A stretch of DNA of 64,000 bases from Psammoneis japonica (Eukaryota), in NCBI GenBank assembly GCA_008632985.1, contig QPGO01000107.1, forward strand, positions 124,001-188,000, in the 5' to 3' direction. The position numbers and the translations under genes are program-made. Positions 16,944 through 60,112 of the stretch are shown here, one piece after another (positions within the stretch are counted from its first letter, which is position 1; every line of letters begins with the position of its first letter). Under the pieces are notes generated by a model that was not told the DNA's origin, did not search any database, and was given only the letters and a program-made list of their open reading frames with translations.

Positions 16944-17043
16944 CATTCGTCATTGTTGACAGAGCAGACGAACTTGGTGAGCTCGGGGTTGCCGTTCACT
17001 TTCCAGTCGTGATCTTCGACGGCCTTGACGATGCGAGCTCTGT

Positions 17044-24230: not shown

Positions 24231-24960
24231 AACAGACTCGGTGTGCTTGTGGAGTGGTGGCACAGCCGGAGTCCAAAGAGTGGGTTCAAGTTCCAACAGG
24301 AATCTTTTGAAAATGACCCGTGATGCACAACCCACAAACCAATTGAGGACACATGTGGAATCTGCACTTTTTTGTGCTGAAACTGTTGTGTTCACACAAT
24401 TTGTGCAAAAATGGACTTGACTGTCATCGGGTCAGGTGCATTTTTGCAAATGTGTTGAAGAAAAATGCGCCTGATCAGAAAACAGTCAAATCCATTTTTC
24501 GCAAAGTTAAAATTCACTGAGGACAGACAGACAGACTTGTCTTGGTGCTGTCCCACACAGTTTCCATGCAATGACTGTGCAGCGCGAAAGATTGCCATTG
24601 TGGCCGTGAAGACACACATGCAACAAGCGACGTAGATCCTTGAACATGCAGGGTTCTTGACCGTCAACCGTTGAGTGGGTGTGTGAAGCGATGAGGATCA
24701 AGAACAGACTTGAATGTGACCGTTGAATGCATGTCTGCAGCGATGAAAAATGTGGCACAATCAATCCAGATGTCCAGCGGCAAGGAGACTTGATGGTGAC
24801 ATTAAATTCCTGCCGATGCTTGGCATTGAATGCGCACAGACTTGCCGATGCACGTAGAATGCATGCGGAGGTCCGCGCAGAATTGAAGCAGCGTCGTCGG
24901 CAAATCAACGATGACGACGGCGGTTGCTCAATGGGTTGACAATGAGCAAGACTGTCAATC

Positions 24961-25239
24961 TGACAGAAATTGAATGGCAAATGGCAAGAATTCAAACAAT
25001 GACTCCTTGCTGCTGTCTAAACAGCAGATGAGTCTCCGCTCAGAGACCGTCACAGGAGCCGAAAGACGTGTGAGTCGGTGCAGTCGGGCTGCTGTCATTG
25101 TTCTTGTGAGCCATGTGGCTCGAAAGCAAACTGCATTGCGCGCGCACGTGCGGAACCAAAGAGCACACAAAACTGTGTGCGGCAAACTAAATGGCGCGCG
25201 ATGTTTCGCGTGCACCTGAATCCTGTTCAAATCCTGTCA
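24961..25239 (-). repeat. 5' LTR of Copia element 1
   Basis: Direct repeat of 14179-14457. Confidence 0.9.
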
Positions 25240-26075
25240 CTGACTCACAGAATCTTTTTGCAAGTGGAAGTGATTTCAACCACTTTCAATCCAACTTGTA
25301 GAATCTTTTTATGAGTGGAAGTGATTTCGACCGCTTTCAGTCTGACTTGTAGAATCTTTTTGCAAGTGGAAGTGATTTTGACCACTTTCGATCCGACTCA
25401 CAGAATCTTTTTGTGAGTGGAAGTGATTTCGACCGCGCTTTCGATCCAACTTGTAGAATCTTTTTGCAATGGAAAGTGATTTTGACTGCTTTTGATCCAA
25501 CTCACAGAATCTTTTTGTGAGTGGAAGTGATTTCGACCGCTTTCGATCCAACTTGTAGAATCTTTTTATGATGGGAAGTGATTTCGACCGCTTTCGATCT
25601 GACTTGTAAAAACTTTTCATGAGGGGAATTGTTTTCGACCGCTTTCGATCCTGCTCACAGAATGTTTTTATGAGTGGAAGTGATTTCGACTGCTTTCGAT
25701 CCGACTTGTAGAATCTTTTCATGGCGCACTTTTGATCCAACTTGTAGAATCTTTTTGTGTTGGGAAATGATTTCAACCGCTTTTGACCTGACTTGCAAAA
25801 ACTTTTTGCAAGGGGAGTTGATTTTGACTGCTTTCGATCCAACTCACAGAATCTTTTTAGAGTGGGAACTCATTTTGACTGCTTTTGATCCAGCTTTTTG
25901 AATCTTTTTATGTTGGGAAATGATTTCAACTGCTTTTGATCCCCGACTCATGAACAACTTCTTGCGAGGGAAAGTCAACCCGACTCACAAAAACTTTTTA
26001 TGAGGAGAATTGATTTTGACCGCTTTCAACCCGACTCACAAAAATCTTCAACAAGTGGAAGTGATTTCAATCCAC
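25240..26075 (+). repeat. 51-bp tandem satellite, right part
   Basis: Roughly 15 degenerate copies of the same unit as 13440-14178. Confidence 0.9.
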
Positions 26076-27074
26076 TTGAAAACAAAGCTTTTTCAATGCA
26101 AACATGTTGCAACAATGTTTGTCTGGAACTCTGAGATCTTCCTTTTCTTGAAGGGAGTTTTGTGTTCTGTCAACATGTCAAACTCTTTTTCATCAAACAT
26201 TTCCTCAAAGTCAATGTGATCTGACAGAACATCAGCAGCATCTGCGCACAACTTTGTCATGTCAAAAACATCTTCAAGCATTCTAAGATTGTTTTTTTTT
26301 AATGCTTTCGCACTCCTCATTCGCATCACAAACACTTGGAGCTTTGAATCTAAAAACAAGTTGTCTGGCCAAGTTGCAAATCATCTCAAAACCTTTGACA
26401 TCAAACATCAAATCCAAGCAAGGCCACATTTCTAATTTTTCCATGTCTTCCACAGTCATGCATCCTGCAAGAAGATTTTTCATCAGCTGAAGGTGGTTTT
26501 TGGTTTGGAGAATGTCCCGTTCTTTTTTGTTGCAATTTCCCATTGGCGCTTTGTGCAACAAACCATTTGGATCTTCACCCATCCAAAATGTTTTCATTTC
26601 CTGTTGTGCTTTGGTGCAATTTTTTCTGTTTTCTGGAGACAGATTGGTGACATCAGAGTCTTGTTTTTTTTGTCATTTGCAAATTTGTCTGTGACATCAT
26701 CCAGGTTGGAGGCATCATCCGGAACAGACTCTTCCGGATTGGACGAGTTTTTTTTTGGCACGATCCAATTCTCGGAGCATTGCCATCACCATGCCAGTTT
26801 CTGTTTTTGCATCGGCTTGTGTTTTGAATTGCTCTGTCTCAGCTTGCGTTTCGAATTGCTCCATCTCAGATGTGTTGTCTGTGTCATTTGGAATTGAGAC
26901 ATCATCCGGAACCGATGTTTTCTTCAAACAGAACAAAAAACACACTGTGTCAGCATGTCGTCATGCAACATTGTCATTTGGAACTGTTTCGTGGATTCAC
27001 CTGAGTTGTGCTTTCTTCCTCATCCGAAATGTTGTTCCAGACATGATCAAACTCACGAATCATCCCCATGAGTT

Positions 27075-27288
27075 TGTTGTGACTCTTTTCACACTTCTTT
27101 CGGATCGACATTGCGTCCTGTCGAACCGTCTTCTGATGATGTCGCGGTGCGCTCTTTCTCAAATGCAACGATTGCAAGTCATCACAAAAAAAATCTGTGC
27201 CATGTGACAACCTCCACCAGCCACAAACAAAAAGAAAAAAGTGCAACATCTCAGATCAAAACAAACGTCATTCAAAAAATGGCGAACA
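27075..27288 (+). repeat. Dispersed repeat (other copy at ~34447-34656)
   Basis: TTGTGACTCTTTTCACACTTC...CAAAAAATGGCGAACA is present at both sites. Confidence 0.85.
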
Positions 27289-27296
27289 CGCAATTG

Positions 27297-29163
27297 TCTC
27301 GCGCACGTGTGCACGGTTGTTGGACTGTGCAGGCGTGCGTGCGTGTGTGAGGTGCAAGCAGAGTGTGCGCAGAATTGCTGCTGCTGAGTGAGTTGACATG
27401 CGGTGGATTTTCCACCGGCACACAACCTGCGTGGTCCACATGAAAGACAAATTTGTGCTCGTCTCTGAAGCTTTTGCACATCATAAAATCATGTTGTGCT
27501 TTTAACAGATGCGTGCAGGAATTCAAAAATCTCACAGAACACCCCAAAAGAACTCTGGAATCTGCATTAAAAAAATTTCTGTTTGACGGTCCGAACAGGG
27601 TCATTGCGAAGCACTTCTCAAAATGTCTTCAGATTGTGCACAGTCAAACATCTGCTGTCACCAAAACAGAGTCACCATCGGATGAGTGGATCCCGTGTTC
27701 TTCACGCGCAAACAACACGATGACGCACAACAACACCATGGCAAGAAATGCGAATGCCGTCCCCTCATCTACAAGCTGGGAATGCGAGACACCATTGAAG
27801 TGGTTGGACAATGTGCATGCGCTGTGTTCATGGGTCAAGTTGGGTTTCTTCTCGCTGCTTGTTGTTGTGTCATTTTACAATGTTTTGACCCACGCCGTGT
27901 TCTTGCTTCGTTGCTTCTGCTCGCGCGCCACCAGCAGCTTCAAGCTCTTCCTGCAGGGTGTGGCCAGTTGCGCGGCTGCATCGAACCCAAACGTGTGCGA
28001 CCAACTGGCCCTGCCCCGGCCAACTCATCTCGCGCACGTGTGCGTGGTTGTTGGACTGTGCAGGTGTGTGTGCGTGTGTGAGGTGCAAGTGGGACATGCG
28101 CAGAATTGCTGCTGAGTGATTGACATGCCGTGGATTTTCCACCGGCACACAATCCACGTGGTCCAAATGGAGCACAAATTTGTGTTGGTCTCTGAGGCCA
28201 TTGCATGTCATTGATTTTGCTCATGCCTCCAATGTGTGCATGTGCCAACTCAAAAGTCTGACAGAACACCCCAAAAGAACTCTGGAATCTGGATTAAAAA
28301 AATTTCCATTTGACAGTCCGAACAAGGCACTGAAACAGCACAGAATTCTGCGTGTCGTGCTTTGCCGTGTCGCAAATCGAAATCACGTGGTGAAAGCACG
28401 GCGAAGCTGACAAGTGGCGGAGAACATCCAAGTGCCAATTGGAAGGAAAGCAATGTTGTCGAGCTTGTCCCAGACACATGTTGTCCAGTGCAAGTGGAAA
28501 CTTTCGTTCAGAAATTTGTCAAAACAAATGTTTTGGACAACTCCCAAGTTCGCCACGGCGAAGCACGGGAGCCAAATTGCTGTGCAAATCGCTGGCAAAA
28601 TTATCCAGCGACACTTTGTAGAGCTGCAATCAATGAATGACTTCCATTCCGACATCGAACTGACACAACTTGTTGCAAGACATGTCACAGCACAACTGTC
28701 GCTCAGCAGAGTGTTCCTCCAATTGTCAAATGTTGTCAGAAGCAGTTGTGGCTTTCCGCCGTGCTTTCGTCGTGCCATCAATTTTACAACATGGTGAAGC
28801 ATGTACGTAAATTCACACCAGGTTCTGCTGCAGTCCCCCATTTGATCAACTGAAAGCATTTGTAACGCACAACAACACCATGGCAAGAAACGCGAACGCC
28901 GTCCCCTCATCTGCAAGCTGGGAATGCGAGACACTGTTGAAGTGGTTGGACAACATGCATGTGCTGCATTCATGGGTCAAGTTGGGTTTCTTCTCGCTGC
29001 TTGTTGTTGTGTCATTTTGCAACGTTTTGACCCACGCCGTGTTCTTTGCTTTGTTGCTTCTGCTCGCGTGCCACCAACAGCTCTTCCTGCAGGGTGTGGC
29101 CAGTTGCACGGCTGCATCGAACCCAAATGTGCGCGACCAACTGGCCCCACCCGGCCAACTCAT
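27297..29163 (+). repeat. Interleaved ~300-bp direct repeats A-B-A'-B'
   Basis: A ~27297-27600 / ~28029-28325; B ~27721-28029 / ~28863-29163. Confidence 0.8.
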
Positions 29164-29923
29164 GCGTCCATGGAGTGGCGCACTTTCAAAAATGCGGTGC
29201 GCACACCCAATCCACACAAAGCACACGCACGTAAAAATGCACTGCAAAATTCGTAGAGATGTTTGTTTGAACTCACTTCTCACACAAACATCACGGCAAC
29301 GATGCTGCGACATCGGCAATGGACGCACACAACAACGACGGTGGACTGGGAGGTCATGATGCACTGAGACAACAACTGATGTGATGAGAAATGAGGTGTC
29401 AATGTCAAATGACAATGACCGAGTTGTTTTGGGAGCTGGTTGAGCCACTGGTGACGAAGGGTTTTTGGCACGCACAGCTTGGTGCTGAAATCACGCAGAG
29501 GTTTTGGCCGCGGTGGGACTGTTGTTTTTCACTTTTTTTGGGGTGCATTTTGTGTTTTCTCGGTCGATCGCATTGATGAAGCACTGAAGTGAGCACGCGA
29601 CAACAGATTTTGACGAAAAGTTGGATTTTCATTCATTGTGGAGGATCAGCACGGGGTTTTAACACGGTGAAGCACGGGGGGACGATTTTTTCACCAGATT
29701 TGCAAGATCCTGTATCCCATCCAATTCGCATGCGTAATGTTAGTGGATTAATGTAATTTTTATACGCAAGAAGCGCAATAACGTCGATATACCCGACATG
29801 ATAGACTTCCCGTGCTGTTGTCGTAATGAGTGAAATCTTGTTGTGTTCGGTGCGTAGAGTCTAGTACTATTTGTCCGTATGTAGACGAGTGCTGCGCACC
29901 GCACTTTTGGAAAGTACGCCACT

Positions 29924-30041
29924 CCATTATAAAACAATAAGAAAGTGCAACTGCAACGATACAAAAAATATACAGATCAGGTTATGAAACTGTTTCGAAG
30001 CCGCGCCACCCACTAATCAGCAGGGGAGCCCTGCGGCAGCC
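29924..30041 (+). repeat. Unmutated copy of a repeat ending in hairpin GCAGGG-GAG-CCCTGC (mutated copy at 34671-34782)
   Basis: Direct alignment of the two copies. Confidence 0.9.
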
Positions 30042-30292
30042 TCATCGTGAGACCCCACAAATACGGAGGGACCCTCCTGTAGAGCTCTACGCGAATTTTT
30101 GTATGTGGTACTGAAACATGTAGCCTACATACGCAAAACTGGTACAGTTTCTACGACAAAAATCCGGAAAAACTCCTAGTTCGCGAGATAGCTCTGGTAC
30201 AAAACCTACGTGAACAGTCCCCATACATTCACGTAGAACTCTACACATTTCCGGGTTGCGGATCCCTCCGTATTTGTGGGGTCCCACGATGA
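30042..30292. mobile_element. 251-bp MITE with ~30-bp TIRs and 4-bp TSD AGCC
   Basis: TIR TCATCGTGRGACCCCACAAATACGGAGGGA. The empty site GGCAGCCCAAT is seen in the paralogous repeat at ~34776-34786. Confidence 0.88.
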
Positions 30293-30351
30293 AGCCCAAT
30301 CGGTCCCACGCACGCTGCCGACATTCTCGCTCATGGCTAACCCTCTTGCGA

Positions 30352-32826
30352 ATGAGCGAACAACCAATTATCCTCGGCAAACGAAAAAGGAATAAAGAGG
30401 TGGATCCAGCTGAAATGATGCAGCAGGTTTCAATCGAAAACAATGAAGAAAGTGCACCGGCATCGATGGAGCTCGTGGTGGAAACGTCCGCGAGTGACGC
30501 GGATGACTCGACCGCGGTCATAGCCGCCGAAATAGTGCAGGAATGGTTAAAAACCGTGACGGACCCGACAGCAAGGAGTGCTCTGGAAGAAAATCGAAAG
30601 CAAATAGTTGAATGTTTGTCGTCGCTAGCGAGTGAAAACGAGTGGCTGTCGATGAAACGTGAATACAGGATTTTCGAGGTTGGCATCATTCTCGGTAAGC
30701 TTCAGCTGCCTGTAAAGGTGGACGCGAAGGGCCTCGCCTTTCTTTTTGTGGATGCTATCGAAGAAAGTGAACAGACGGAGTGGAAAAAACGCGTGGCGAC
30801 GCTGGACTACAAAATTGAAGAGATAGCGCTTTCCCACACGTTCGACGTAAATCAATTTTTGACTCACGTTACGGTGGTGTCAAAATGGTATGAAAAGGGC
30901 AACCAATTACAGGACGCCCCGTACTTTTGCTTGATTCAATCGAGTGGAATGGGCAAAACCAAGATCATGTATCATGCCTGTCAGGAATTAGAGAGCAATC
31001 ACGGGTGGCGGTGCTCCCTGGTACTCCCGAGTCAGATGAAGACGGGTAATACATCGCCAGTAAATGCACACCGAGTTTTCAAAAAGCAAATTGACCTTCA
31101 AGGAATTCTTGCATCAAACACACCTGTTGGCACAATAGTCGATCGAGGCTTTGAAGCACTGGATCGGCTCGTGGATGAAACTGTAGAAGGAAAGGAGCAG
31201 CCCACCAAATATGTCTTTCTTTGCTTTGATGAAGCCCAGGATTACTTGGGCTCATTCAACGAAACAAGTGAAGATAAACCATTGAAAACAGAGCACCCAT
31301 CACTGCTTTTTAGGATCATTCGTTTGTGGCTGCGAAAGCAACGATCTGATGGCTTAAGAATTGTTGCTTGCTTTGCCGGGACGACCGCAAATCTGAACAA
31401 TATTCGCTTCGAATTTGACGACGACAAAAGATTGATGAACACAGTTCCTTCAAGGGAATGGAAAGCTCAGGGTGCTAAGTTCTACGACAAAGGATCTGAG
31501 GTTTTTCCGGTGTCCACTCTGACCACTACTATGGGTTGTATCGCCAAGACGAGCGAAGGAAGCGAGTACAAGAAGGCAGTTCGCTACGGGCGCCCGCTTT
31601 TTGCAGTTTTGGATGCCAATAATGCACTTGAAGAAAAGGTGCAGAACATTCTTGGTCGTATGCTCTTAAGTAAGAATGATTGGGAGGAAAGCTTGCCTGC
31701 CTGTTTTAGTGTGCTTGCTACAAGGATGCAGATGGGCCAAACGACCTTTGCAATCGCTTCCGATCTTGTTGCCAACGGATATGCAAACCTCACTTCAGTC
31801 TCATCCAAGACCGCGAAAATCTGCTTTATGACTGATCCCGTGTGCGCCCGTCTTGCTATGGGCTTGATGGATGAAGAGTTTGCGTGTGGGCCGTTCATGG
31901 GCAAAAATCCACATTGGTGGGTTAGAAAGATGACTATGTTATTCTCTCGGGGTATGTGTAGCCCCGAAAAGGGCGACTTTGGTGAGGTGATGGTTGCTTT
32001 TTACTTGCTGCTATGTGGGGATGCGATACGTGGACCCCTTTCGGACGAAACCTTTTCAGTTTCATTGGATGATTGGCTTGGTGTTCTGCAGGGTGGAGGG
32101 CGTTCCACGAAGCTCGCCAAGCCTCCCTCTAGTTACCAAGTGACAGTTAACTTCATTCAAGTCTGTCGAAACTACCTTCGTTCTTACGGAGTCTGTTGGG
32201 AGGGTTTCAACGACCAAGGTTTCTTGAAGTACCTATACGAATCCGCCACCGCTTTCTACGTTTTTGGCGGCTGTCCTGTAATTGACATGGCCGGTGCTAT
32301 CAGAATTTCCAGTTCAACCGGAAGTGAAATTTCCTTTGCGCCGCTTGTCATTTCTATCAAGTCACACCACTACTTTTCACCAAAGCAGGCCAAGGAGGAA
32401 TGCGAAAAAATGTTGAAGAAGGCGGTCGACAGCGGCATTATGCGGGCGTTGTGTCTTCTCATTGTATTTGGGTCACCAACGTTGCCGGGAAAATCGTCTA
32501 GTGACGACGAATATGCCTTTAAGGGATGTGTGGCAGACAAAATCGTTGGAGACAAACCTGTAGCTTGTATTATTCGGATCCCGTACAATGATGCTTTTGG
32601 GCTCACGGATTCCTTTGTGGAGCTGACATCTTGTGGAGTTGCGGTTGCTGAGTTGTTGGCGTCACATCCTTACATTCGTGCGAATGTCGGAGTGCCGGAG
32701 GTGCTTAATCCCGATTTCGCACTCCGGCGAGGACAGAAAGACACAGAAGCAACGGCAATGTTGGGAGCTCTTTCAAAAGATCTCAGAAAAGAAACCAAGC
32801 CTACCACCGACCACATGAATGGGTAA
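30352..32826 (+). CDS. Crinkler-like (CR) P-loop NTPase plus probable restriction-endonuclease-fold protein
   Basis: Intact ~824-aa ORF with Walker A QSSGMGKT, Walker B FLCFDEA, YGRPLF, KGDFGEV, PVID...ISIK and an N-terminal NLS-like KRKRNK. Normal TpA and Tyr content. Confidence 0.7.
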   Translation: MSEQPIILGKRKRNKEVDPAEMMQQVSIENNEESAPASMELVVETSASDADDSTAVIAAEIVQEWLKTVTDPTARSALEENRKQIVECLSSLASENEWLSMKREYRIFEVGIILGKLQLPVKVDAKGLAFLFVDAIEESEQTEWKKRVATLDYKIEEIALSHTFDVNQFLTHVTVVSKWYEKGNQLQDAPYFCLIQSSGMGKTKIMYHACQELESNHGWRCSLVLPSQMKTGNTSPVNAHRVFKKQIDLQGILASNTPVGTIVDRGFEALDRLVDETVEGKEQPTKYVFLCFDEAQDYLGSFNETSEDKPLKTEHPSLLFRIIRLWLRKQRSDGLRIVACFAGTTANLNNIRFEFDDDKRLMNTVPSREWKAQGAKFYDKGSEVFPVSTLTTTMGCIAKTSEGSEYKKAVRYGRPLFAVLDANNALEEKVQNILGRMLLSKNDWEESLPACFSVLATRMQMGQTTFAIASDLVANGYANLTSVSSKTAKICFMTDPVCARLAMGLMDEEFACGPFMGKNPHWWVRKMTMLFSRGMCSPEKGDFGEVMVAFYLLLCGDAIRGPLSDETFSVSLDDWLGVLQGGGRSTKLAKPPSSYQVTVNFIQVCRNYLRSYGVCWEGFNDQGFLKYLYESATAFYVFGGCPVIDMAGAIRISSSTGSEISFAPLVISIKSHHYFSPKQAKEECEKMLKKAVDSGIMRALCLLIVFGSPTLPGKSSSDDEYAFKGCVADKIVGDKPVACIIRIPYNDAFGLTDSFVELTSCGVAVAELLASHPYIRANVGVPEVLNPDFALRRGQKDTEATAMLGALSKDLRKETKPTTDHMNG

Positions 32827-32999
32827 GCCACTGAGCTATTTGGTTGCATGGTTACTGCATTGGCAACAGGAAGCAGTGTTATGTTACTATGATGGACGTT
32901 AAATTCTTCTCTCAGGGTTGCCTCAAGATAATTCTTCCAGAAGACGTCATAGTCTAAGTTGTTAGGAAAGCAAATGTATTGCATGTCGCATTGGATAGA

Positions 33000-35900
33000 G
33001 TTGACGCACTCTCTGTTTCACACAATGAAATTTGCAGGATGGACAAAACACATTTTTATGCTAAAACGATGATTCGTGTCTTTGCCACATGCCCCAAGAA
33101 GTTGTTCTTGGATGCACACTGGAATGTGTCTCTGGCCGAGCACCCATGCTTGTGCATGGTGTGGTGTTGCAGTCTGCTTTCTTTGATGGGAGAACAGTGC
33201 CACAGCCCCTCCCACCTGCAGAAAGGGAAGGGGAGCCAACATCACTCATTGGTTTCACACCACCTGTTAACAACCCAGCTTGAAGATTTGGGCTGGTGGT
33301 TGGAGTGAATGATGGGGGGCAGAAAATTGTGCAGAAATTGTTGTGCAAACAGACGGGTGCCAGCAATGACACCCACCACCTCTGGGCTCCAGGTGCTGCC
33401 TGTGCATTTGAGCCCTTTTGATGACTTTGAAATGGGGTGACATTTGAGGGTTGCACTGGATTTTTTGACACCTGTTTGCCATCTAAAAAGAGTTGCCCCA
33501 TGTTGGCACCAAAGTGATCCAAGAAGTGAGTCTCACAAATTTGACAGCAATCGTGTGCTGTCAGTGTCACAATGAGAAAGTGGCTGGAAAAGTTTGTGCA
33601 AATTCAAACAGCGACATTAAATGAGCTGACAAGCTGGTGTCATTTTGGTGCCACCTTTTCTCAAAAAGGAAAAAAAATGATTTGTGTCAATGCAGTGCTC
33701 TTTCTTTTGGGGGTGCAGCATTTGCAAGAAAAACCATTGCAGTGGTGACAGGCAAATGAGGCAGAAGCAAAGGGGGTGCAAGGAGCAGCATTGGTGGCAG
33801 GTCAAAGAAGGGGAAAAATGCAAGGAAGCCAATGTTGCAAATCACCCTCCCCAGCCACTGCTGCCAGAAGAAGTGCCAACACCAATGCCAACATGTGACA
33901 ATGATGCTGACAACCAAGAAGAAGACTTGTTTGAGATTGAAGAGGCTGGCATCACTTTGGACTCCATGTTGGAAGACAGAGATGAACTGCCAAACCAGCT
34001 CTGTTGCTCAGACACAAGAGAATTGCAATCACCAGCTGCTTCAAAGTTCTTGGTGCACCAGAGAATGAAGACTCAGGGAAAGTTCACAACAGGATGGTTT
34101 CTGAAATCAGAAACATGCTCAAGCTTCCTGAGGGCACTGATGTCACTCCTGTCTTTTATGCCCTTTTGGGGTGCCAACAAAAGAGCATGCTGCATGATGG
34201 AGAACACAGGATCATTGCATGCAGCAATTCACACAGCAACAGGAGGGCTTCAGCCAATGAGCGTGGAGGGTCAGATTGCTGCAGACACACAAGAAGATGA
34301 ACTCAGCTCTTCTCAAAGCCAGCATGCTGTCAACCATCATTGCAGAGAATTGGGTGAACAAGACAGTGTGACAAAGTCAGATGTCTTTTCATTTGTGAGG
34401 CAATGAAAGCCAAAATTGTCAAATTGAAACCACAAGCCAAGGAAATTGTGACTCTTTTCACACTTCTTGCGGATCGACATTGCGCCCTGTCAAACTGTCT
34501 TCTGATGACATCGCGGTGTGCTCTTTCTCAAACGCAATGATTGTGAGTCATCACAAAAAAATCTGTGCTGTGCAGCAACCTCCACCAGCCACAAACAAAA
34601 AGAAAAAAGCGCAACATCTCAGATCAGAACAAACGTCATTCAAAAAATGGCGAACATGACAATCATTCGTCCATTGTAAAACAATGAGAAAGTGCAACAA
34701 CACAAAAAATGTGCAGATCAGGTTGCAAAACCGTTTTGAAGCCACGCCACCCACTGATCAGCAGGGGAGCCCTGCGGCAGCCCAATTCCTTGTAGGATGA
34801 CAAAATGCCAAAGACGTGCTCAAGTCCAAAAAGCTCTTCAGGCGAAGCATGTGGTCAAAGATCTGACCTTGCACACAAGGATTTTGCAGTGCTCTGTCAT
34901 TCCCCGGCTTCTTGACTTCCACCATGCCTGTGAGACTTCCTCCCGTGCAAACTGTCCAAATGTCAGGCTGAAAGTCAAAAATGCTTGGCTCGTTAAAACA
35001 CTTGACTTGACCCTGCAGACCTGCAGTGTAGATGACCAACTGCAAAACTTGCTTCACAAGACCTTGAACATTGCTTTCAATCCCCCAATTGTTTGATTCA
35101 CCATTGATTTCATGGCCAAGCCATAGATGCGAGTTGTCCTGTCGACACAGACTTTCGTCCAGAAGCACTCGGAAGTCATGCTCAATCATCAAGGCATCGT
35201 CGTGCTTCTCCTTTGAAATGCTGCATTTCGATTTCGACCCCGAGCGCCTGCCGAGAGGCGGAACACCATCCTGAAAGAATGTTTTCATTGTTGCCAAAGG
35301 ATGAACTTAGCTTCGCTTTCAGCTCAGACAGATCAGTGAGGCCGTCGTGCCAGCCAGTCTGTCTGTCCATCAGTGCGTTTTCAGTTTTCTCTGGAGACCC
35401 GCCCAGTTTGCAACAACCCAAAACTTGTGATCACTTGAGGAGTTTTCCTTGGTTTGAAGAACACATGAAATTGAAGGGAAAATTGTGACCTGGGTTCATT
35501 GGGATTGAGAAAGGATTCCAATCTTGTGCCATGTCAGCACAACCTGGATTTGCAGGCAACCTAAAATGCTTTGTGAGGGGGGGGGGGGGGCTCAGGACAC
35601 GTTTCAACTTTCTCCCTTTCTGAGAACAAAGTGGCACAGATGCAACATTCTTGCCAACAGCTGTCAACATGTGGAAAACCCAAAGGAGCTGTCATCAACC
35701 ATTTTGTGTGGTTTGAAGTGGCCAACACTGATGTCATCTTGCAGACAGCAGCAGCCACCGCTGCACCAGTCAGCAGAGCAAGGAAAATGATGCAAGGGCT
35801 GTTGTTGGTTGGCTTGACTCTGTCTGCCAAAGGGACAGACATCCAATGTTTCCTGTTTGTTGCTTGACTGGCTCATGCTCCTGCAGGCTCAAGTTCAAGA

Positions 35901-38900
35901 AACATGCTGGTGTGTCATTCGTCTCAATGGAAAAATCTTCAACATCCACGATTTGGGACAATTTCATGCACGCCAAATTGCAGCCTTTTTGGCAAACATT
36001 TGGCCCATCATCTGTCCATCACATCATGGATTTTCATGACCCCTCAACCTTTTTCACCCCAACACAGCATGGCACAATGGTGCTGTCACACCGTCACAAT
36101 TTTGAGCACAATGGAAGGTGAGGCATTGGTTGCTGACAATTGCACTGGTCTTTTTTGATGCTCCAAAGGCTTGAAGAATGTGTCATTGGTGAACAATGCC
36201 CTGCCTTCTTTTGTCATGAAAATGCCATCTCTTTTTTGCCATGGTGGTTGCACCACATGTCAAGCATTGCGCAATCTTGCAAGCTGTGACAAGGTGTGCA
36301 CATCTCTGTGTGATTCAAGTGCTCGACATTTCATTTTCCAATTTTCTCAGAGTGTTGCAATCTCAACCGATTCCATGGCATTTGACACCCACTGACTCAC
36401 TTGGGCAGAAGTTTCACTCTCAACATTGGGTGGAACATCACCACATTCTTTGAAATCATCCTCTTCTTCAACCTCTTCTTCAGATGAGGACTCAGCTGCC
36501 AGCACAGTTGTCATGGTGAAGAACAGTGCTCTGCGCTTCAGCGTTGGAGGCAGAAATGAAATTCTCACACTGCACACAATTTCAGCACTGAAACATGCAC
36601 ACACAAAAAACAGCAAAAAATGCACAGGCCAACTCACATGCACAAAATGGGGTTGATGTGGTGGCCCTTTATGCCAGTCTGTTTCTTGAACTTGAGCCCA
36701 CATGACTGGCTGTCACCAATGCCTCCATCAGCTAAAATGGTCATTCTTTGTTGTCATTGCAGCAACAACTGGCAGACAGTCAAAGGAAGCAACCCTCCCA
36801 CCCACCCTGGGAGCCCACATGGCTGCCAGGATCCCAGCCAGTGATTGAGTCTGGAGCTTGAGCTTTGCAGATGGACCTCTGCCACCAACCAGTTTGGAGC
36901 TTGAGCCAGCAAGCTGTGTGGTTTGAATTGGCGACCCCCCACCCCCCATGACAAAAAACTTGTTGGTCAGCACAGGTGACATTGACATGTTCATTGCATG
37001 GCAGGTGCACTGCAACATGTGGTGTGTGTGGTGATTGCATCAGGCAGATGGGTGGGTGTTCACTGCCTGTTAACATCAGGGCATGCATGCATCATCTGTT
37101 GGGTCAGGCATGCTGTGGTGGATTTTGTGCATGGCTGTGGGTGCTCAACATTGCCAACTGTTGTTGCAAATCTGAAAAAATTGACAACAATGAACCCCAA
37201 AGACACACCAGCACCCACTGACAGTGTGGTGGCAGAGGGCACTGCCCATTGCCAGTGCATCTGATGCACCTGCCACTTCAGCAACAATGACATGGCTGTT
37301 GCTGCCGCACAGACAATGCATGTTGCAGCTGCCTCAGCCATGCAAAGGCACAGCCAAGGTCATTGCCCACAAGGATGGCCTCATTCTGCTTGTCCTGTGG
37401 AACCAAGTGAAGGAGTTTGGGGAACCAACCTTCTTCTAAAGCACAACTGTGCAATGGTCAAAAAGAGATGGAAAAAATGCAAAGTCTGGGGTTGCTGGCA
37501 ATGTCACTCCACATGTTGCGTGCAATCAAACAGGTGAAATTGGAGGAGTGGGGCAACCTGCTTCTGAATCACAACTGTGCAATGGCAGAAAGGAATGGGT
37601 GCAAGCATTTGGAAGCTCCTGCCATTCCAGTGTCTGTCAGTCAAAAAATGCATGTGAAACCAGGTGCACCCAGTGAGCCACCAAAGGACATGGTGTGTTG
37701 GTGCTGGTGCCATGAAGAGCATCAAGAATGACACACTGATGACAATGATGAGAAAATGAAGGGGGTAAAAAGGAGGCACCCACAAAGGGGCAGAGAAGCT
37801 CCTGAAGGCCCCCAGCCAGCACAACAGCCCAGCCCGTGTTGGCCTGAATGGGTGTGACTTAAAGTTTGTGGAAGATGCAGAAGGCAAGCTGCATTGATGG
37901 TGCCAGAATCATCTTCATTTGAGGAAGGCAAGGGCAAAACCTTCAGTGTCACAAGTGGGCACCCCAGAAAACTGAGTGAGGCATTTGATCAGAAGCAGAT
38001 GCCCCATCTTTGGGCACACATTGCAGCAAATCTTCAGCTGAGTTGGTGCATGTCATTGCTGTTGAAGGTTTGTTGTCTCACCACATGTTGCTCAAGCACA
38101 GCAAGGAGTCACAGAGGGGGCAAGGTGGTGGGCATCAGGGTCTTTTTGATGCAAACCCAGTGCACTTTGCTCAAGACCTGTGGTGGAACACTTGCTTTGA
38201 AGGTCTCAAAGAGCATGACACATTTTGCTTTTTGTGCTTTGTGGAGGTCATTGTGGCTGCCTCCCACCCTTTGAGAGCTTTGAAGTTGGCAGCTGAGTCA
38301 TTGGATTGGATCTTGATGTCAGCTGCCTGAGGAACAAGGGCAAAATCATTGGTGCACACCGGGTGCCACAAGTCCAGCACCACAGAGGAGCCCCCCAGCA
38401 GTGGTTTGTAGCCACAGTCAGATCAGCTCCATCCAGACAAGCAGCTGTTTGTTCCCTGCCTTTGAAGACAACAGCATTTTGATGCAGCATGTTAACACTT
38501 GCCCTCTGGAGTTGCTCTTTTGGGCCCAAACTTTGTTTTGGGGCTTTGAGTCTCAGCAACTTTCTTGGATGCCCCCAGTCCACCAAAAATCAAGACAAAG
38601 GAAGCCTTTTCTGCTTGAACAGTTTGACAGGAGCAATGATGAAGCTGGATTGTCAATGTCAGACAGAGGCACACAGCCCAAGCAAAATGGAACAAGCAAT
38701 CAAAGGAAACATGAAAAAACACGAGCACTGCAGGTCCTGTTGTGTTGGTCTGTTGATCGGCACAGGCTTGCTTTGGCACATGCAGTCTGTCCATCAGCAT
38801 GTCCAAGCTGTGGTGAAAAGTGCAGGCCTTTGGATCAGTTGAATTGGCAAAAGCACCAGGGCTTTGCCAGGCTGGCATTTGGCGAGTGCCTTCTGGAGGT

Positions 38901-39860
38901 CATTGGCAGCATGGTGCATGGGGGGCAGCATTTGATGTGTGCTGTCAGGTTGTTGGTGATGATGGGAGCAGCAGGTGCTTGCATGGTGGGTGGAGCTGTT
39001 TGACAAGTTCCACACCATCAGGAGCAAGGGATGCAGCAGGAAGGGAAGAAGCAACTCAAGTGCAGGTGGCAGAGAGGTTGTTGTTGACATCGGCAGCAAT
39101 TTGGGCGGAGTGAATGCAGGATGAGCTGTCAAAGTCAGGGGGCTCCTCAGACAGTGTCAGACACATCTGGGATGGGAACAGAATGTGACTCATCACAGAG
39201 GGTGCACATGGAGCCATTGTGGAAGAGAAAAAATGTTGTGTGATGGTTGTTGAAATCCAAATGGTGGAGTCCTTGGGGCTTGGGCAGAGGATGAGGGATT
39301 CAAAAGAAAGAGAAGCTTGAAAAAAGGTTCTGAAAAGATGTCTTCCAGGGTCAAGGTGGGTCATCGGCACAGTCAAAGGACTGGGGCCAGCAAATGGAGT
39401 CACCGAAGGGAAGCTGTCCATTCAGACAGCTCTTGGCATGGGCAGGATGATGCAATGAGTTGGATGTTGGTGGCCATGCCAGGTGCATGGTGGGTGTTGC
39501 AAATGTGAGTGTGCAGGCAGGTGTCTCAAAGGCATGTCTTTTTGGTGGTGCATGGACGGTGACGGCCTGGGTGCAGATTGTGTTGCTGGAAGAAAGAGTC
39601 GGGCATGGATCACAAGCTGCAATCTTTGTGCTCAAAAAAAAACAAATCAATTGTTTTAAGTGCTGTTGCACCTTTGCCCAGCAACACCGGCTCCGGCTGA
39701 CCCACACTTCCAGTGCACCCCCCTTGGAGGTGTGGCAGAAGTGCATGCAATTGGCCTGAATCAGCAACTCCCGGAGGAGAACGCCCAATGGAAACAACTG
39801 GCAATGGTGCATGTGCTGCATGTCACTGGCCTCTTGACTTCCTTGAGGCTTTCCTTGAGT
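33000..39860. repeat. Old TE/repeat debris, depleted of both TpA and CpG
   Basis: Near absence of TA and CG; no intact domain recognised other than the relic at 34786-35420. Confidence 0.5.
34786..35420 (-). pseudogene. Hypermutated relic of a Crinkler-type REase-fold domain
   Basis: ESNVQGLV...PDIW...VEVKKP...GQIFDHM, a PD-(D/E)xK pattern with GQxxxY changed to H. Confidence 0.55.
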
Positions 39861-42800
39861 CTGGGATCTGGGCTTGATCACAGAAATCCAATTTTGTGTG
39901 TGTGTTGCAGCAAAGGTCTCATGTTCTGCCACGGAATCAAGCAGAACATCTCAGTCTTTTGCCAAGTGTTCCTGACATTTGTTGCACACAGCTGTCAGTT
40001 CGGCCTCCACTTTGCATCTCTGAGAAGATTGTCTGGTTTCTACATCATGGCCGTGGACATGCTTGTTGTGCTCTTCCCCCACAATTCCCGCCATTGTCGC
40101 CAGACAAACGTTCCCATCTGTGCTGTCCAGTTTGGTGGTTGTTTGTTCTCCTCCTGGCACTGACAAAGGATCCCAGAATCTTGCAGATGTCCAGATTGAT
40201 TGACACTCCACAGAGAGGAATGCCTTCTGCTGAACACTTGCCCCCACCCCACGTTGGATTGAGCTTGCCACAGAACTCTGCATCTGCAATCAATGTCTTC
40301 AAGATGCGCCATCTTGCTGTAAACCATGCTTCAATGGACTGCAACAAGAAATCCCGAAGGGTTGGCATGTTGTCGATTCGGTCACAATGCCTCCTTAGAG
40401 ACCTTGTGGAAACTTTCTGTGCCATGGTTTGTCGCACGGACAGCGGAGCATGTGGTCCCCATCTTCCATGGGATGCTCACAATGAAGACACTGGTGAGGT
40501 CTTGCCGAATTGCACCGGCGGATGATCTCATTAGTGAGGAGAAGATCGTGAACCAGCTTGGCTGTTCCAATGTGTTGTTTGGAATGACGTTTTATGAGGA
40601 AGGCATGAGCATCCCAATCCATCAGCTCCGTCACCTCTGGACTCCACTGACTGCATTCAACAATGCGCTGCAGCAGCTGTGGGGTGGTGGCCACATGTCT
40701 GACATGACGTTCACAACCTGCGGTCAACGTGCCATCTGGAAGACTCAAACATGAGTGACAGTTTGGAAAGGGCAGCACCATTGTGGCATCCCAAGGGTGC
40801 TGGCCTTGGCATGCCCCTGCCAATCGATCCGCTCGGACGTTTGCTCTGGCATTGAGGGGCAGGGCATGAATTGGAGCATGCCAATCTTGATGGCCCTTCA
40901 GCCATTTGACTGGCAGTGGCTGTGTGAAAGAGCCAGTTACAAATGTCCTCTCCATCTCAAGCCGAGTGTGCAGTGTCTCATCAATGACATCCCAGTCAGG
41001 AGACATGCTGTTGGCTCCAGGATGTCTGACATGAAAATCTCTTGTTTCATCCAATTGTTCCTCTGAGGTTGGAGCTGGAAGGATTATGGTGAGTTGATCA
41101 AGACAAGACACCAAAGCTTTGTTGTCACAGTGTGATTCCATCTCTGGAAGCTGTTCCACTCTGCAATGTTCCATGAACCGGCAAATGAATTGAAGGAGGG
41201 ACAAAATGCCACAAGCCTCTGCCCGGCATGATGACGGTCTTCTGCCAAAGACTGGTCCTGCACAATCCACCAGTGGTGCACCATCCAGGGTGATTGTCCA
41301 CCCAAAGGCAGCTCCATCTTTGACGGATCCATCACTGCCAGCTGTTAACTTTGATGACACAAAACATTGGATTGGCATTTGCGGTGGTGAGTGAAAGTCC
41401 AGTTGGTCAAACAACTTCTCTTTCCACTGGCCCAGCAAGTGCAGTTTGTCTTGGAACATGTCTGGGATCCTGGAGCTCAGGAAGTCTGATGATGAAGTGT
41501 GGGGCAGAGCAAATGCCCATCAACCATCTTCTGTTGTTGACAGTTCTGCCAGAAAAGACTCTTCAGACGGGGCCGGAACTGTCTCCAACTCTGTGACAGA
41601 GTTGGTCCTCATGCCGTTCACTTGAAAAATTTGACATCCGTTGGTTGATCTAACACACAGTTGCTCTTCAGAAGGAGAGAAGTACGCTGAGGCTTGCATG
41701 CACATCTGAGACGGAGGCACTGACCAATTGCCAAGAGGTTCCTTGAGAGTGTGTGATGCCGAATGACACAGAGAGGCACAGAACTTGTGCCACATGGACC
41801 AGGCTCTTGTTCCTGGTTTTTGCTGTTCAACGTTGTTCAAGGAGCTGGAGTTGCTCTGAAGCAACGGGTCTCCTGCTGTTTTTGTAGCGTCCAATGTCAA
41901 GCCATCTGCAAGAGCAATGTCAGACACTGACAACACCTGAACATGCAGTCGACAGCAATTCATCCATCTGACTTCTCTGTGAGAGAAGAGTTGGGACTGG
42001 AGCACAATGTCCATGATGCACTGATTGTCATCACATTGAAGGGGAAGAATGCCGGAATGAGTCAAATGTGCTTTTCCTTGAATTCTGTGTGGAGAAAAAC
42101 ATGAACGGAGGCAAACCAACAAGATTCCACATGCGGGAGTTCTGCATCTGCATCCCACAGAAAGCTTTCTCTGGTTTCTGAGTTCAGTTGGATCCATGAC
42201 ACTGCAATGTGCAGCAGCTTGTGCAGTTGATCCTCTCCCAGATTTAATTTGGTGACTCCTCTGGAATGCTTCAGTGACATTTGCAGTTGAGCAACGCCTT
42301 GCTCTGCATCCAATGATCAAAAACCTCTGCCTCCCAGGGCTTGGGGACCGCACAAGATGAATCTTTTTGCACTTTGATTGCACCCACATTTGGCAAAAAC
42401 AACTCGCATGGCTTTCTGTTGAACTGCAAGTGACTCTTTGGGAAGAAAGGTTGAGTTTGGAAAAATGCAGGTCATCAAAGAAAGGCAGCAAGCGTGGTGG
42501 CATCTCCATGTTTCAATGTGATTGAAGTGACAGGATCTAAGGAAGAGGGCCGCAGCATCACTCTTGTGTTGGAGTTTCTTCAACTGGGTCTTCTGGGAAC
42601 TGATTGGAGCCATGCAGTGTCCAAGAGTTTTGTGCAGTGTGTTGTGGCACATGTGCTTGCATGTCACCAGTGTGAACAATGGTTGGATGTGCAATCGCCC
42701 TTTTGTGTGCACATGACAGGCCATGAGCATCGATTTGCTTGCCTCTGTGGCACAGCCCCGAGCCCAGAGAACAGTGGTCGCAGGTTCAACACCTTGATTC

Positions 42801-43726
42801 ATGCAAAAAGTTCATGGCAATGCAGGGGGGGCAAACGCCTGTGACAGCCTAACTGACATGCAGAAAATGTCTGCGCAAGAGGAGCGCACAAAACATGCCT
42901 TCCAACCAGGGTGCGAGAAGCCAACAGGGTGCGAGACGCCTGACAGAGTGGCCTTGCTGACAACACAAACAAGTTCACAAATTGAACAAAATGCACAAAA
43001 AAGCATCCCGACAGGCACAGGAGACACCTCTCTGGCGATTGCACTGACAGCTGCAATGCACAATGAAAACACACAAACATGTGCACCTGACACTGACAAC
43101 TAGAAAACATCCACCTCTGAATGTGATGCAAACCAGTGTGCTTTGTGAAGATCCTGACATCAGTTTGATTGAAGGGGGGTGTTGTGGCACACATGCTTGC
43201 ATGTCACCAGTGTGAACAACGGCTGGATGTGCAATTGCCCTTTTGTGCACATGTGACACAGTGCGCATGCTACAAGTTGTGTGCTTGAACGGGAAGTTGA
43301 CCAGACGGCGGAGAAGATCTCAACGTCAAGGTCTTCATGATGTGGACGAATGCATGGCTCGCCGCACTTGGTGAAATCCCACTCGACCACATGAGAAAGA
43401 AGCACTTGGGTGACTTGAGTTTGTGCTCCACTGTGTCCAGCAAATCACACCAGAGTTGATCATCCTGTTGTGATGAGAGCAACAGGTCAAGAGTTGAAGG
43501 TTGAGGAGACTGGCACGGAAGTCATTGACTTGTTTGGACGTGTCGTCTGCAAATCCTCGATTGTGCATGCGGATGAAGAATCAGCCATCAGGAGTTTTGA
43601 AGCATGCTCCTGTTGCTTTGGCATCAAAAATGTTGAACAAATGGCTGCAAAGGGTGTTCCATTGCCATGGAGAATTGCCGCTGCCTTGACCTGTGCCGCA
43701 GAGGGGGGAATCGTCCGTGTGGGAAT

Positions 43727-44113
43727 TGCAGCAGGCATCCCTGCCGCAGCCGCCGATGATGCTGCTTTCCTGCATCTGTGGGCTGTCCGCAGCGACGCTG
43801 ATCCTGCAGAAGCGTGCATTGGAAAATGAAACTCCTGGCATAAGACCCACGAGAGGCTGCAGGAGATCCAGGCGACTGAGGCCGGCGCGACTGGCCATCG
43901 TGCAAGTGACTCACCTTGTGCCGGTGTGAAGGGTCTGCAACAGGATGTGCGCAGTGCCGAGCATGACTGATTCCGCGCAAGGACTCAGAACTCCATGTGT
44001 CTCACTGTCGCACATGCATGCTCTACGTAAAATGGTCTCACAATTTTTCCACACCACAGGAAATCTCTGTCTCTCTACGACTGAGTGCTTGGACCCCATT
44101 TTTGCACAGGGCA
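43727..44113. mobile_element. Probable solo LTR
   Basis: 387 bp, TG...CA, flanked by a GAAT duplication. Removal restores the LINE RT frame RSHSHTDDSPLCGTGQG. Confidence 0.65.
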
Positions 44114-47463: not shown

Positions 47464-47558
47464 TGTCGATCGTTGTTGCCATGCAAAACATGATTCGCTC
47501 CGGAGAAGATCGCACGATCGTCATTCTCCGGGTGTCAGGGATCTTTCACCCACACGCG

Positions 47559-59898: not shown

Positions 59899-60112
59899 GG
59901 TGCTTTCAAGTTGTATTTTCAGCTTGTGGTCGCAAGTGTTGGTCGATGGTCGAGTCGTCGGAACAAAAAGTGAGCTCGGTTCCATGGTGGCCCATTGGGT
60001 TATGAGATCCCGACAGCAAAGAGACCCGGAAAGATTGCTATTATTTTCGAAATTTCGGTGTTCGGTGTTCGGCACTCCACAATGTTGTGTGGCCGCTGTT
60101 ATTTTCGACACA

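Follow-up and report, generated by a model that had tools for sequence, protein, structure and literature searches.

Why should one copy of a repeat keep its TA dinucleotides while a second copy has lost nearly all of them? This question is raised by a repeat pair in a 64-kb stretch of the diatom Psammoneis japonica, the whole of which is referred to as the window. An earlier note had described the pair as a before/after comparison, in which one copy was converted at its TA sites and the other was untouched. The matching parts of the two copies, A and B, are as follows:

27077..27288: left half of copy A, in depleted DNA, 0 TA
29923..30041: right half of copy A, unconverted, 8 TA, in a TpA-normal island
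34446..34656: left half of copy B, 0 TA
34670..34782: right half of copy B, converted, with 6 TG and 1 CA at the TA sites of copy A and 1 TA left

A blastn comparison of the window with itself aligned 29923-30041 to 34670-34782 at 85.7% over 119 columns (E 1.9e-32), and the left halves, 27077-27288 and 34446-34656, with a 91% match. The repeat is a low-copy duplicated unit of ~340 bp; the right-half match stands as first described, but the unit is larger than it implied, and the halves of copy A are separated by ~2.6 kb of inserted repeats. A MAFFT alignment of the right halves contains 13 substitutions, all of them transitions (13/13), and one 6-nt indel, which corresponds to a TGCAAC unit present in two copies in A. 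Seven of the eight TA sites of copy A are changed in B (six to TG, one to CA), and the eighth TA, common to both copies, is followed by AAA. The other six substituted bases all lie at CG, TG or CA sites (two CG-CA, one CG-TG, one TG-CG, and a TG-CA site that accounts for two). These counts bear out the earlier note on the converted sites, on the TAAA context of the survivor, and on the CpG character of the remaining differences apart from the small indel. Under alternative gap settings, global alignment gave six TA/TG differences and 11 mismatches, all at pyrimidine-purine steps. When 13 substitutions were placed randomly in copy A, at least seven fell in TA in 0.02% of 200,000 trials, so that chance is an unlikely source of the pattern. 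By strand, TG exceeds CA six to one in this pair and the outcomes alternate elsewhere, with no consistent pattern. There are seven sites with TA in A and TG or CA in B and none of the opposite kind, but a comparison of two copies cannot by itself give the direction of change.

The description of copy A as untouched holds for its right half, which keeps 8 TA. Its left half lies in depleted DNA and is converted, without a single TA, so that the description fails for copy A as a whole. The left halves of A and B differ at four TG-versus-CA discordant sites, compared with ~0.6 that double CpG decay would give; by this count, conversion in A was independent of that in B.

Over the whole 64-kb window, the observed/expected ratio (o/e) is 0.24 for TpA, 1.51 for CA, and 1.48 for TG. 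A two-state segmentation resolved this average into alternating domains:

1..3931: depleted domain, TpA o/e 0.08 (segmentation)
3932..10175: TpA-normal island with NAP, two unnamed ORFs, and MPP6
11121..29659: depleted domain, TpA o/e 0.09, CpG o/e 0.71
29660..33062: TpA-normal island around a gene, TpA o/e 0.60, CpG o/e 1.00 (TA positions and segmentation)
33063..54862: depleted domain, TpA o/e 0.07, CpG o/e 0.49
54863..64000: TpA-normal island with WDR12/YTM1, PPR genes, and Nop56/58

Depleted segments make up 70% of the 64-kb window and have a TpA o/e of 0.03-0.09, TG and CA ratios of ~1.6, and a CpG o/e of 0.49-0.81, compared with ~1.0 in islands. By the same segmentation, islands have a TpA o/e of 0.46-0.60 and a CpG o/e of 0.86-1.01. 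TA positions and segmentation together place the island borders within ~100 bp. A small TA-bearing patch (10681-11120) lies within a 26-nt inverted-repeat element in depleted DNA.

The islands coincide with genes, as they would if a genome-wide bias from TA to TG/CA were opposed by purifying selection that keeps needed TA in genes. However, non-coding DNA within islands has a TpA o/e of 0.62-0.98 (0.98 upstream of the gene at 30352-32826, 0.76 upstream of MPP6), compared with 0.49 for the coding sequence 30352-32826. Since TpA is thus higher in the non-coding than in the coding DNA of islands, codon selection is not the cause. Repeat fragments and a MITE-like insert within the island have also escaped conversion, and we regard a genome-wide bias of this kind as highly improbable.

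The direction of change can be read from two further kinds of sequence in the depleted domains, and from other copies of the window's repeats:

25241..26090: 51-bp tandem array (second array at 13450-14190), with two classes of pyrimidine-purine columns
45645..53032, minus strand: relic of a Copia-type LTR retrotransposon, with LTRs at 45645-45960 and 52717-53032 and a polyprotein frame at 47559-52847

Three independent tests show TA to be ancestral and TG/CA derived. The direction proposed in the earlier note is borne out mostly outside the pair, by the tyrosines of the Copia relic, the discordance of its LTRs, and sibling copies. We compared the relic with 40 intact relatives and took as tyrosine columns those with tyrosine in at least 80% of relatives. 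At the 27 conserved columns the relic has 14 Cys, 9 His, 2 retained Tyr, and 2 other residues. For the majority of the remaining residue classes, 70-100% of columns are retained, with lower values for Thr (56%), Met (64%), and Val (68%). Overall, Tyr amounts to 0.28% in the relic versus 3.69% in the relatives, Cys to 3.57% versus 1.16%, and His to 4.14% versus 2.46%. The relic otherwise stays in a single frame for 1763 codons, interrupted by 3 internal stops and free of indel noise. The split between Tyr to Cys (14) and Tyr to His (9) shows a process that acts on both DNA strands. This split also bears on A-to-I editing of retrotransposon transcripts, fixed through reverse transcription, for which it can be said that RNA-editing deaminases prefer a U before the edited A (as related in bioRxiv 10.64898/2026.01.13.699255). 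Editing of sense RNA yields only Tyr to Cys, whereas 9/23 of the changes are Tyr to His; TG and CA are enriched equally; and tandem repeats, TIR elements, and the segmental duplicate, which do not pass through RNA, are equally affected. The Tyr to His changes and the non-retroelement repeats refute RNA editing for the bulk of the signal, and the probability left to it is minimal.

The two LTRs were identical at insertion, and TG-versus-CA discordance between them is therefore informative about direction. There are nine such sites, compared with ~0.55 expected from double CpG decay, and five sites at which only one LTR has TA. The 35 LTR mismatches comprise 23 of TA type, 7 of CpG type, and 5 others, so that LTR divergence overstates insertion age about threefold. 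Six paralogous pairs pooled contain 48 TG/CA discordant sites versus ~6 expected, and their 263 mismatches divide into 115 TA-type, 66 CpG-type, and 82 other. Sibling copies were taken from contigs of sequencing runs of one sample, possibly the window's own assembly data. Among the 40 best supported differences, beyond which lie 578 more, 22 have TA in the siblings and TG or CA in the window, none is the reverse, and nine have CG in other copies and TG or CA in the window. In the 51-bp units, columns contain either CG, TG, and CA with 0 TA, or TA, TG, and CA with 0 CG.

The opposite course, in which RIP-like C to T changes at CpA/TpG made the TA of copy A out of TG/CA, fits the two-copy comparison just as well, which is symmetric when taken alone, and fungal RIP does turn CpA into TpA. 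Yet TpA around copy A is ordinary (o/e 0.60), with no excess, and conserved Tyr codons have been lost in the depleted relic. The TG-versus-CA differences between the LTRs are impossible by C to T changes, TG/CA became TA in 0 of ~57 cells of the CpG-class tandem-repeat columns, and the majority of sibling copies have TA. The tandem columns, the relic's tyrosines, the LTR pair, and the sibling copies refute this reversal, to which we give practically no chance.

Sequencing itself could in principle generate the pattern, if a modified base at TpA in silent chromatin were systematically miscalled and the true DNA were TA. A modification restricted to heterochromatin would mimic the domains, the replacement of Tyr by Cys and His, and the TG/CA discordance, and since the runs could be those from which the window was assembled, they offer no independent exclusion. 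On the other hand, run contigs differ from the window at 0 positions over 415-496 bases and at 12 over 3071, depleted DNA included, while sibling copies are read as TA within the same run. The intact frame of the relic (1763 codons, 3 internal stops, no indel noise) and the CpG decay and ordinary substitutions that accompany the pattern also argue for real mutations, and make a miscalling artefact very unlikely.

The question of why the right half of copy A was spared leads to its surroundings, which contain the following features:

27299..29159: inserted repeats that split the halves of copy A, TpA-depleted (bounds approximate)
29170..29927: TIR element crossing the island border
30038..30292: MITE-like insert, TA-rich, with 36-nt terminal inverted repeats, within the island
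30352..32826, plus strand: intact gene without a Pfam family, start codon inferred

The probable start codon at 30352 lies 311-429 bp downstream of the right half of copy A, which is thus, as had been pointed out, just upstream of an intact gene. The gene matches P0001 at 48% identity, in an alignment that starts at 30355 and covers 98% of the query, and belongs to a family (831 aa here) that is expanded in diatoms, with many copies in Nitzschia inconspicua; diverged contigs also align to it. The ORFs adjoining copy B have no Pfam family. A decayed paralogue of the 831-aa gene beside copy B was considered and rejected, as tblastn searches with the gene and five relatives matched the gene alone. 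Contigs of run X2, presumed to be DNA, cover 27448-33201 and not 33202-35100, where missing cover is no evidence.

The TIR element has 2 TA up to 29659 and then 20 TA (29660-29915), and is converted only on the outer side of 29660. One contig spans 29460-29903 of the element, and at six of the seven differences listed for 29473-29647 siblings have TA and the window TG or CA. The MITE-like insert, with up to 26 sibling contigs, is unconverted in the island; one contig skips its 255 bases, with 4 letters fitting both sides. For the inserted repeats at 27299-29159, siblings have TA, with as many as 22 different contigs at a listed position. In run X1, one contig runs from the left half of copy A through its right half to the gene with neither the 2.6-kb insert nor the MITE, and both inserts are therefore recent or polymorphic. 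In this insert-free version of the locus, the 11-letter linker has two TA where the window has CA and TG.

These observations must be weighed against age as the only cause, under which the island holding the right half of copy A would be young DNA not yet reached and location would be irrelevant. The insert-free X1 contig, the gene family with its many Nitzschia inconspicua copies and diverged contigs, and the patch at 10681-11120, an indication that unconverted young inserts exist in depleted DNA, all fit such a view. The other islands, though, contain conserved single-exon housekeeping genes (NAP, MPP6, WDR12/YTM1, Nop56/58), which are not recent arrivals. The TIR element is of a single age and is nevertheless converted just left of 29660, where its siblings have TA, and the left half of copy A, part of the duplicated unit, was converted independently of B (4 discordant sites versus 0.6 expected). 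Age as the sole explanation is thus unlikely, but it could contribute to the local contrast, since conversion takes time and the inserts beside copy A are missing from another version of the locus. The sharp borders, the split TIR element, the spared MITE, and the differing halves of copy A, of which the left is converted and the right is not, instead support targeting that follows position rather than homology, as the earlier note had argued. We infer that the targeted state is repressive chromatin; these domains also show CpG decay, which serves as a proxy for cytosine methylation.

Within the same sequences, ~85% of TA but ~25% of CpG has been lost. Rough estimates from the paralogous pairs put TA loss at ~6-7 times CpG decay and ~60-120 times other substitutions. 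CpG decay, which makes up 6/13 of the substituted bases in the A/B pair and 66/263 of the paralogous-pair mismatches, cannot account for the loss of TA. Survival of TA relative to islands depends on its flanks, with none of 54 ATAT sites retained and the best survival (0.59) at TTAA, and a multiplicative rule fits all ten flanking contexts. The rule misses the TG or CA outcome at 2/7 converted A/B sites. The base two before the edited A and the base after it are inseparable in the survival data, as they are complementary across strands; the tandem-repeat columns, in small numbers, favour the base after the A.

Taken together, these comparisons make it probable that a very fast TA-specific mutation process acts in apparently silent, transposon-rich DNA of this diatom and exempts the DNA of genes and their close surroundings. 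The evidence is comparative throughout and comes from one 64-kb window. At 5'-TA-3', the A on either strand would be turned into G, giving TG or CA; the gene island would protect the TA of the right half of copy A, whereas copy B, in targeted DNA, would have lost 7/8. A plausible chemistry, put forward with somewhat less than even confidence, is that an enzyme deaminates adenine in DNA and the resulting hypoxanthine is read as G; the main alternative would be thymine oxidation at TpA, with a product that mispairs with G. The process could defend the genome by disabling mobile elements irreversibly. More tentatively still, we propose a chromatin-guided DNA-editing defence, in which an enzyme would edit the A of TA in silenced DNA and quickly erase TpA from every mobile element, an old SAR-wide system shared with Bigelowiella natans. 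Such an enzyme would recognise TA best in ATAT and worst in TTAA, and its edge would follow active genes within ~100 bp. If so, Tyr codons, TATA-like signals, and two of three stop codons would disappear along with TpA, the enzyme would be a naturally occurring one that edits adenine sequence-specifically in double-stranded chromosomal DNA, and TpA editing would be a mirror image of fungal RIP common to distant SAR branches.

The process has consequences for annotation. Converted DNA lacks TAA and TAG stops and therefore shows long false ORFs in all six frames. Nine of the ten long ORFs of depleted DNA compared with Pfam had no family, and the tenth had a weak RVT_2 match under Pfam's curated cut-off; transposon proteins lose tyrosines and are missed by family models. 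The related sequences surveyed lack the signature: TpA depletion was found in 0/78 environmental Copia-family loci, all with an o/e of 0.47-1.09 (the best 80 of 594 confirmed relatives, 78 distinct), and Tyr depletion in 0/120 related polyproteins (the best 120 of 860). Both sets are best-scoring matches, biased to intact copies, so that absence elsewhere is not implied, and the signature may be confined to this lineage. In the literature searched, which included few subscription journals, TpA loss in diatom repeats is nowhere described, and the sole earlier account of TpA-specific hypermutation is a 2026 preprint on a rhizarian alga. The diatom footprint, at saturation and with natural before/after controls, indicates that the process is no one-species curiosity. 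It adds aiming by chromosomal position at the scale of a single gene, the flanking rule provides a testable sequence rule for an enzyme, and diatoms are a group with genetic tools, which opens the way to experiments.

Among known systems, RIP turns C into T, chiefly at CpA, and thereby generates TpA; duplication triggers it, and both copies are affected. The process in the window shares with it irreversible hypermutation by transitions, a preference for a dinucleotide, and the destruction of mobile elements. In contrast to RIP, a hypermutation of Neurospora and other fungi (PMC7296669), TpA is destroyed here and the product is GC-richer, and what is spared, according to position, includes one duplicate copy, a MITE present in many copies, and a gene whose paralogues have diverged. 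The window thus has neither C to T change with TpA excess nor duplication-driven mutation of all copies, and the contrast with RIP drawn earlier stands. Decay of 5-methylcytosine at CpG likewise converts a palindromic pyrimidine-purine step to TG/CA on either strand in silent DNA, but the dinucleotide and the base differ, as does the extent of loss (~85% of TA versus ~25% of CpG). In dinoflagellate DNA, 5-hydroxymethyluracil is a thymine modification with a reported TpA preference. It could in principle give T to C at TpA, and we know of no such mutational footprint. The APOBEC and ADAR enzymes of animals edit retroelements (as related in bioRxiv 10.64898/2026.01.13.699255), and the likeness lies in hypermutation of mobile or viral sequences with a neighbour-base preference, driven by a deaminase that in the diatom is presumed. 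According to that account, their substrates are single-stranded replication intermediates or RNA, and their footprints are strand-asymmetric and limited to the elements themselves, whereas in the diatom both strands, whole chromosomal domains, and non-retroelement repeats are affected. The window does not show the ADAR-like picture of sense-strand A to G changes in retroelements only. The sole diatom with mutation-accumulation data, Phaeodactylum tricornutum, is reported to have the usual GC to AT bias (PMC6604790).

The closest precedent comes from the rhizarian alga B. natans, where integrated DNA of giant viruses and virophages is hypermutated specifically at TpA. In its mutation-accumulation lines, TpA changed to TpG/CpA at ~1000 times background in integrated viral DNA (bioRxiv 10.64898/2026.01.13.699255), and an ADAT2-like deaminase was proposed, though not demonstrated (Mettrop et al., bioRxiv 10.64898/2026.01.13.699255). 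Both cases, as far as that preprint describes its own, involve A:T to G:C transitions at TpA only, with TpG or CpA by strand, in particular regions and in foreign or mobile DNA, at rates orders of magnitude above background, and both leave clusters that are poor in TpA and rich in CpA and TpG. The window accordingly has the TpA-confined change, the bounded regions, and the mobile DNA targets of the B. natans type. The main text of the preprint neither states a flanking preference for its 231 mutations nor refers to diatoms. The process was seen directly in the B. natans lines, in two viral inserts, whereas in the diatom it is deduced comparatively. The two inserts of B. natans still retain many TpA (Rho 0.45 and above), while the diatom is near saturation (o/e 0.03-0.09), and in the diatom retrotransposons, TIR elements, and tandem repeats are hit, gene islands have ~100-bp borders, and TA loss follows a flanking rule.

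The window, which is eukaryotic, has an overall observed/expected ratio of 0.24 for TpA and 1.5 for CA/TG, and the TpA depletion is regional and sharp-edged. Two-state segmentation assigned 70% of the window to depleted segments (TpA observed/expected 0.03–0.09, TG/CA 1.5–1.7, CpG 0.49–0.81) and recovered four TpA-normal islands (TpA 0.46–0.60, CpG 0.86–1.01).

TpA-normal islands of the window
3932–10175, island
10681–11120, island (small patch)
29660–33062, island holding the right half of repeat copy A
54863–64000, island

The three large islands carry single-exon genes, namely NAP, MPP6, an 831-aa gene, WDR12/YTM1, PPR, and Nop56/58. Non-coding island DNA is richer in TA than coding DNA (observed/expected 0.62–0.98 versus 0.49), which shows that the islands were not made by codon selection. 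The 824–831-aa gene next to copy A (probable CDS 30352–32826) lacks a Pfam family, and all of its named relatives, the best at 48%, are from raphid diatoms (Nitzschia inconspicua, Cylindrotheca closterium, and Seminavis robusta). Some relatives bear AAA_22, ResIII, or DUF2075 domains, and the family, with at least 14 members in N. inconspicua, possibly comprises diatom NTPases that are mobile or have a role in defence. The named matches of the WDR12/YTM1 gene (58492–60141) are all from diatoms, with Chaetoceros debilis the best (48%).

In depleted DNA, the loss of TAA and TAG leaves long open frames in all six frames, and the long ORFs there are no evidence of genes; the window holds 47 ORFs of at least 200 aa, many overlapping on both strands. 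A 51-bp tandem repeat forms two arrays (13450–14190 and 25241–26090) 11.4 kb apart, both flanked by a shared 282-bp segment (14178–14459 and 24960–25241, 91%), and the whole looks like a large duplicated block. A further tandem duplication of about 1.37 kb lies at 21496–24230, its copies 85–98% identical by segment, beside short repeats of 10, 19–21, and 5 bp at 20854–21398, including nine copies of CCGACAAACC.

The repeat pair flagged in an earlier note was recovered by aligning the window to itself (29923–30041 versus 34670–34782; 85.7% identity over 119 columns, E 1.9e-32). According to that note, seven of eight TA are converted in one copy, with nearly all other differences at CpG-type sites plus one indel, and MAFFT alignment confirmed this. 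The 13 substitutions are all transitions; seven of the eight TA of copy A are changed in copy B (six to TG, one to CA), the other six substituted bases all lie at CG, TG, or CA sites, and the single 6-nt indel is a TGCAAC unit present twice in copy A. When 13 substitutions were placed randomly, seven or more TA were struck in 0.02% of 200,000 trials. The TA common to both copies is followed by AAA. These sequences are the right halves of a larger unit, whose left halves (27077–27288 and 34446–34656) match at 91%; the halves adjoin in copy B, and in copy A other repeats totalling about 2.6 kb lie between them. The right half of A is directly followed by a MITE-like insert (255 bp, 36-nt inverted ends), beyond which homology to B returns for a few bases. 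The right half of A lies within island 29660–33062; the left half of A and the whole of copy B are in depleted DNA. Neither left half contains TA, and TG in one faces CA in the other at four sites (0.6 expected), which indicates that they were converted independently after duplication, with the right half of A spared. The notion of an untouched copy thus holds for the right half of A, but the unit is larger than had been described, and the left half of A, without TA, is converted.

The proposed direction of change, from TA to TG or CA, is borne out by several comparisons. The Copia relic, a decayed LTR retrotransposon in the depleted domain 33063–54862, has LTRs 89% identical and a single reading frame over 1763 codons with three internal stops. 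Its read-through was aligned to 40 of 71 full-length polyproteins (1550–1800 aa) from the best 120 of 860 relatives. At 27 columns with Tyr in at least 80% of relatives, the relic has Tyr at two, Cys at 14, His at nine, and other residues at two; most other residue classes are retained in 70–100% of columns (Thr, Met, and Val in 56–68%). Tyr codons (TAY) become Cys (TGY) or His (CAY) codons through precisely the change of TA into TG or CA. Because Cys and His are both among the products, both DNA strands were struck, which rules out sense-RNA editing. The LTRs were identical at insertion, so that TG facing CA can descend only from TA or CG; nine such sites occur where CpG counts predict about 0.55, and TA stands in one LTR only at five further sites. 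Six paralogous pairs in depleted DNA have 48 discordant sites (about 6 expected), and their 263 mismatches comprise 115 TA-type, 66 CpG-type, and 82 others. Sibling copies were taken from contigs matching 26900–35100 at 80% likeness or more, from a DNA sequencing run that may belong to the assembly's own data; among the 40 differences with the best support (a further 578 were present), TA faces TG or CA in the window at 22, the reverse at none, and CG faces TG or CA at nine. In 25 units of the 51-bp repeat, pyrimidine–purine columns fall into two classes, {CG,TG,CA} without TA and {TA,TG,CA} without CG. Finally, TpA observed/expected is 0.47–1.09 at all 78 distinct loci of the relic's Copia family from environmental sequences (drawn from the best 80 of 594 relatives). 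Together, these results show that the TA-free state is derived, which rules out a RIP-like reading.

In the LTRs and pooled pairs, about 85% of inferred ancestral TA was lost, compared with about 25% of CpG. By rough arithmetic on small numbers, with some changes possibly predating the duplications, TA loss per base is roughly 60–120 times that of remaining substitutions. In the insert DNA left of 29660, TA is lost with CpG still near expectation, which fits TA loss outpacing CpG decay. Survival of TA relative to islands depends on context (ATAT 0 of 54, ATAG 0.02, ATAC 0.03, GTAC 0.08, CTAG 0.10, CTAA 0.31, TTAA 0.59), and all ten contexts can be reproduced with a single factor for each flank: A 0.10, G 0.28, C 0.31, and T 0.77 when the base precedes TA, or when its complement follows TA. 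The TA surviving in TAAA in the repeat pair agrees with this rule. Within the window, CpG is most strongly depleted (observed/expected 0.08–0.45) at 33001–43500, where TpA is lost in full, and the Copia relic at 46001–52000 has lost TpA with CpG still at 0.8–0.9. TpA and CpG decay, which differ in speed, could serve as two clocks.

Location is favoured as the determinant of conversion. The TIR element at 29170–29927 (35-nt ends, 91%) is one unit, since a sibling-copy contig spans 29460–29903. Position 29660 divides its TA unevenly: two lie to the left, and 20 lie in the part of its body at 29660–29915. At six of seven listed differences in 29473–29647, TA in the siblings faces TG or CA in the window, and GCGCAC at the left end of the element corresponds to GCGTAC at its right end. 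The MITE-like insert, within the island, keeps about 20 TA although siblings of it occur in as many as 26 contigs. In one contig, the left half is followed by a linker of 11 letters, the right half of A, and the gene, without the 2.6-kb insert or the MITE; its linker contains two TA, where the window remnant (29160–29171), about 500 bp outside the island, has CA and TG. This contig documents another version of the region upstream of the gene (29923–30472), which belongs either to the second haplotype or to a paralogue that is nearly identical. The half-converted element, the spared many-copy MITE, the two halves of A, and the linker support the earlier suggestion that targeting follows location rather than homology alone. 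Age alone, by which unconverted DNA would merely be young, cannot explain islands that consist of housekeeping genes, nor the half-converted element. Age does contribute, since conversion takes time: a 566-bp element within depleted DNA (10606–11171; 26-nt inverted ends, 85%; 20 TA inside, patch 10681–11120) has probably inserted too recently to have been converted.

As read from these sequence comparisons, the process acts on DNA, replaces the A of TpA by G on either strand, and is directed at domains. The targeted state is likely repressive chromatin, because CpG decay, a footprint of cytosine methylation, shares the depleted domains and is absent from the islands. GC-biased gene conversion is unlikely, as AA, TT, and AT are not depleted, and an artefact arising from a modified base is likewise improbable. 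Enzymatic deamination of adenine to hypoxanthine would be the simplest route; the main alternative would have the thymine of TpA oxidised to a base that pairs with G. tRNA adenosine deaminases target A34, which is preceded by an invariant U33, and a TpA preference would therefore pass to a DNA-acting derivative of such an enzyme. Adenine deamination was also proposed for Bigelowiella natans, by authors who point to an ADAT2-like protein (bioRxiv 10.64898/2026.01.13.699255).

The observation of the earlier note is thus confirmed, and its interpretation is both supported and extended. In the literature searched, we found no description of TpA loss in diatom repeats, and one diatom mutation-accumulation study, in Phaeodactylum tricornutum, reports the usual GC to AT bias (PMC6604790). 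The closest system is that of B. natans, where mutation-accumulation lines show TpA-specific hypermutation in two integrated viral regions: of 231 mutations, all but one change A to G or T to C, and each of these 230 falls at TpA; the rate is about 1000 times background (bioRxiv 10.64898/2026.01.13.699255). The main text of that preprint mentions neither diatoms nor flanking bases. In contrast, the footprint described here lies in a stramenopile, is saturated, covers most of the window, and is deduced from sequence comparison; it strikes both transposons and satellites, and it ends at the borders of genes. Compared with fungal RIP, the process is a chemical mirror image and lacks RIP's defining features. 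Judged from one window, it appears to be a genome-defence-like hypermutation of a kind described very recently, of which the diatom case would be new.
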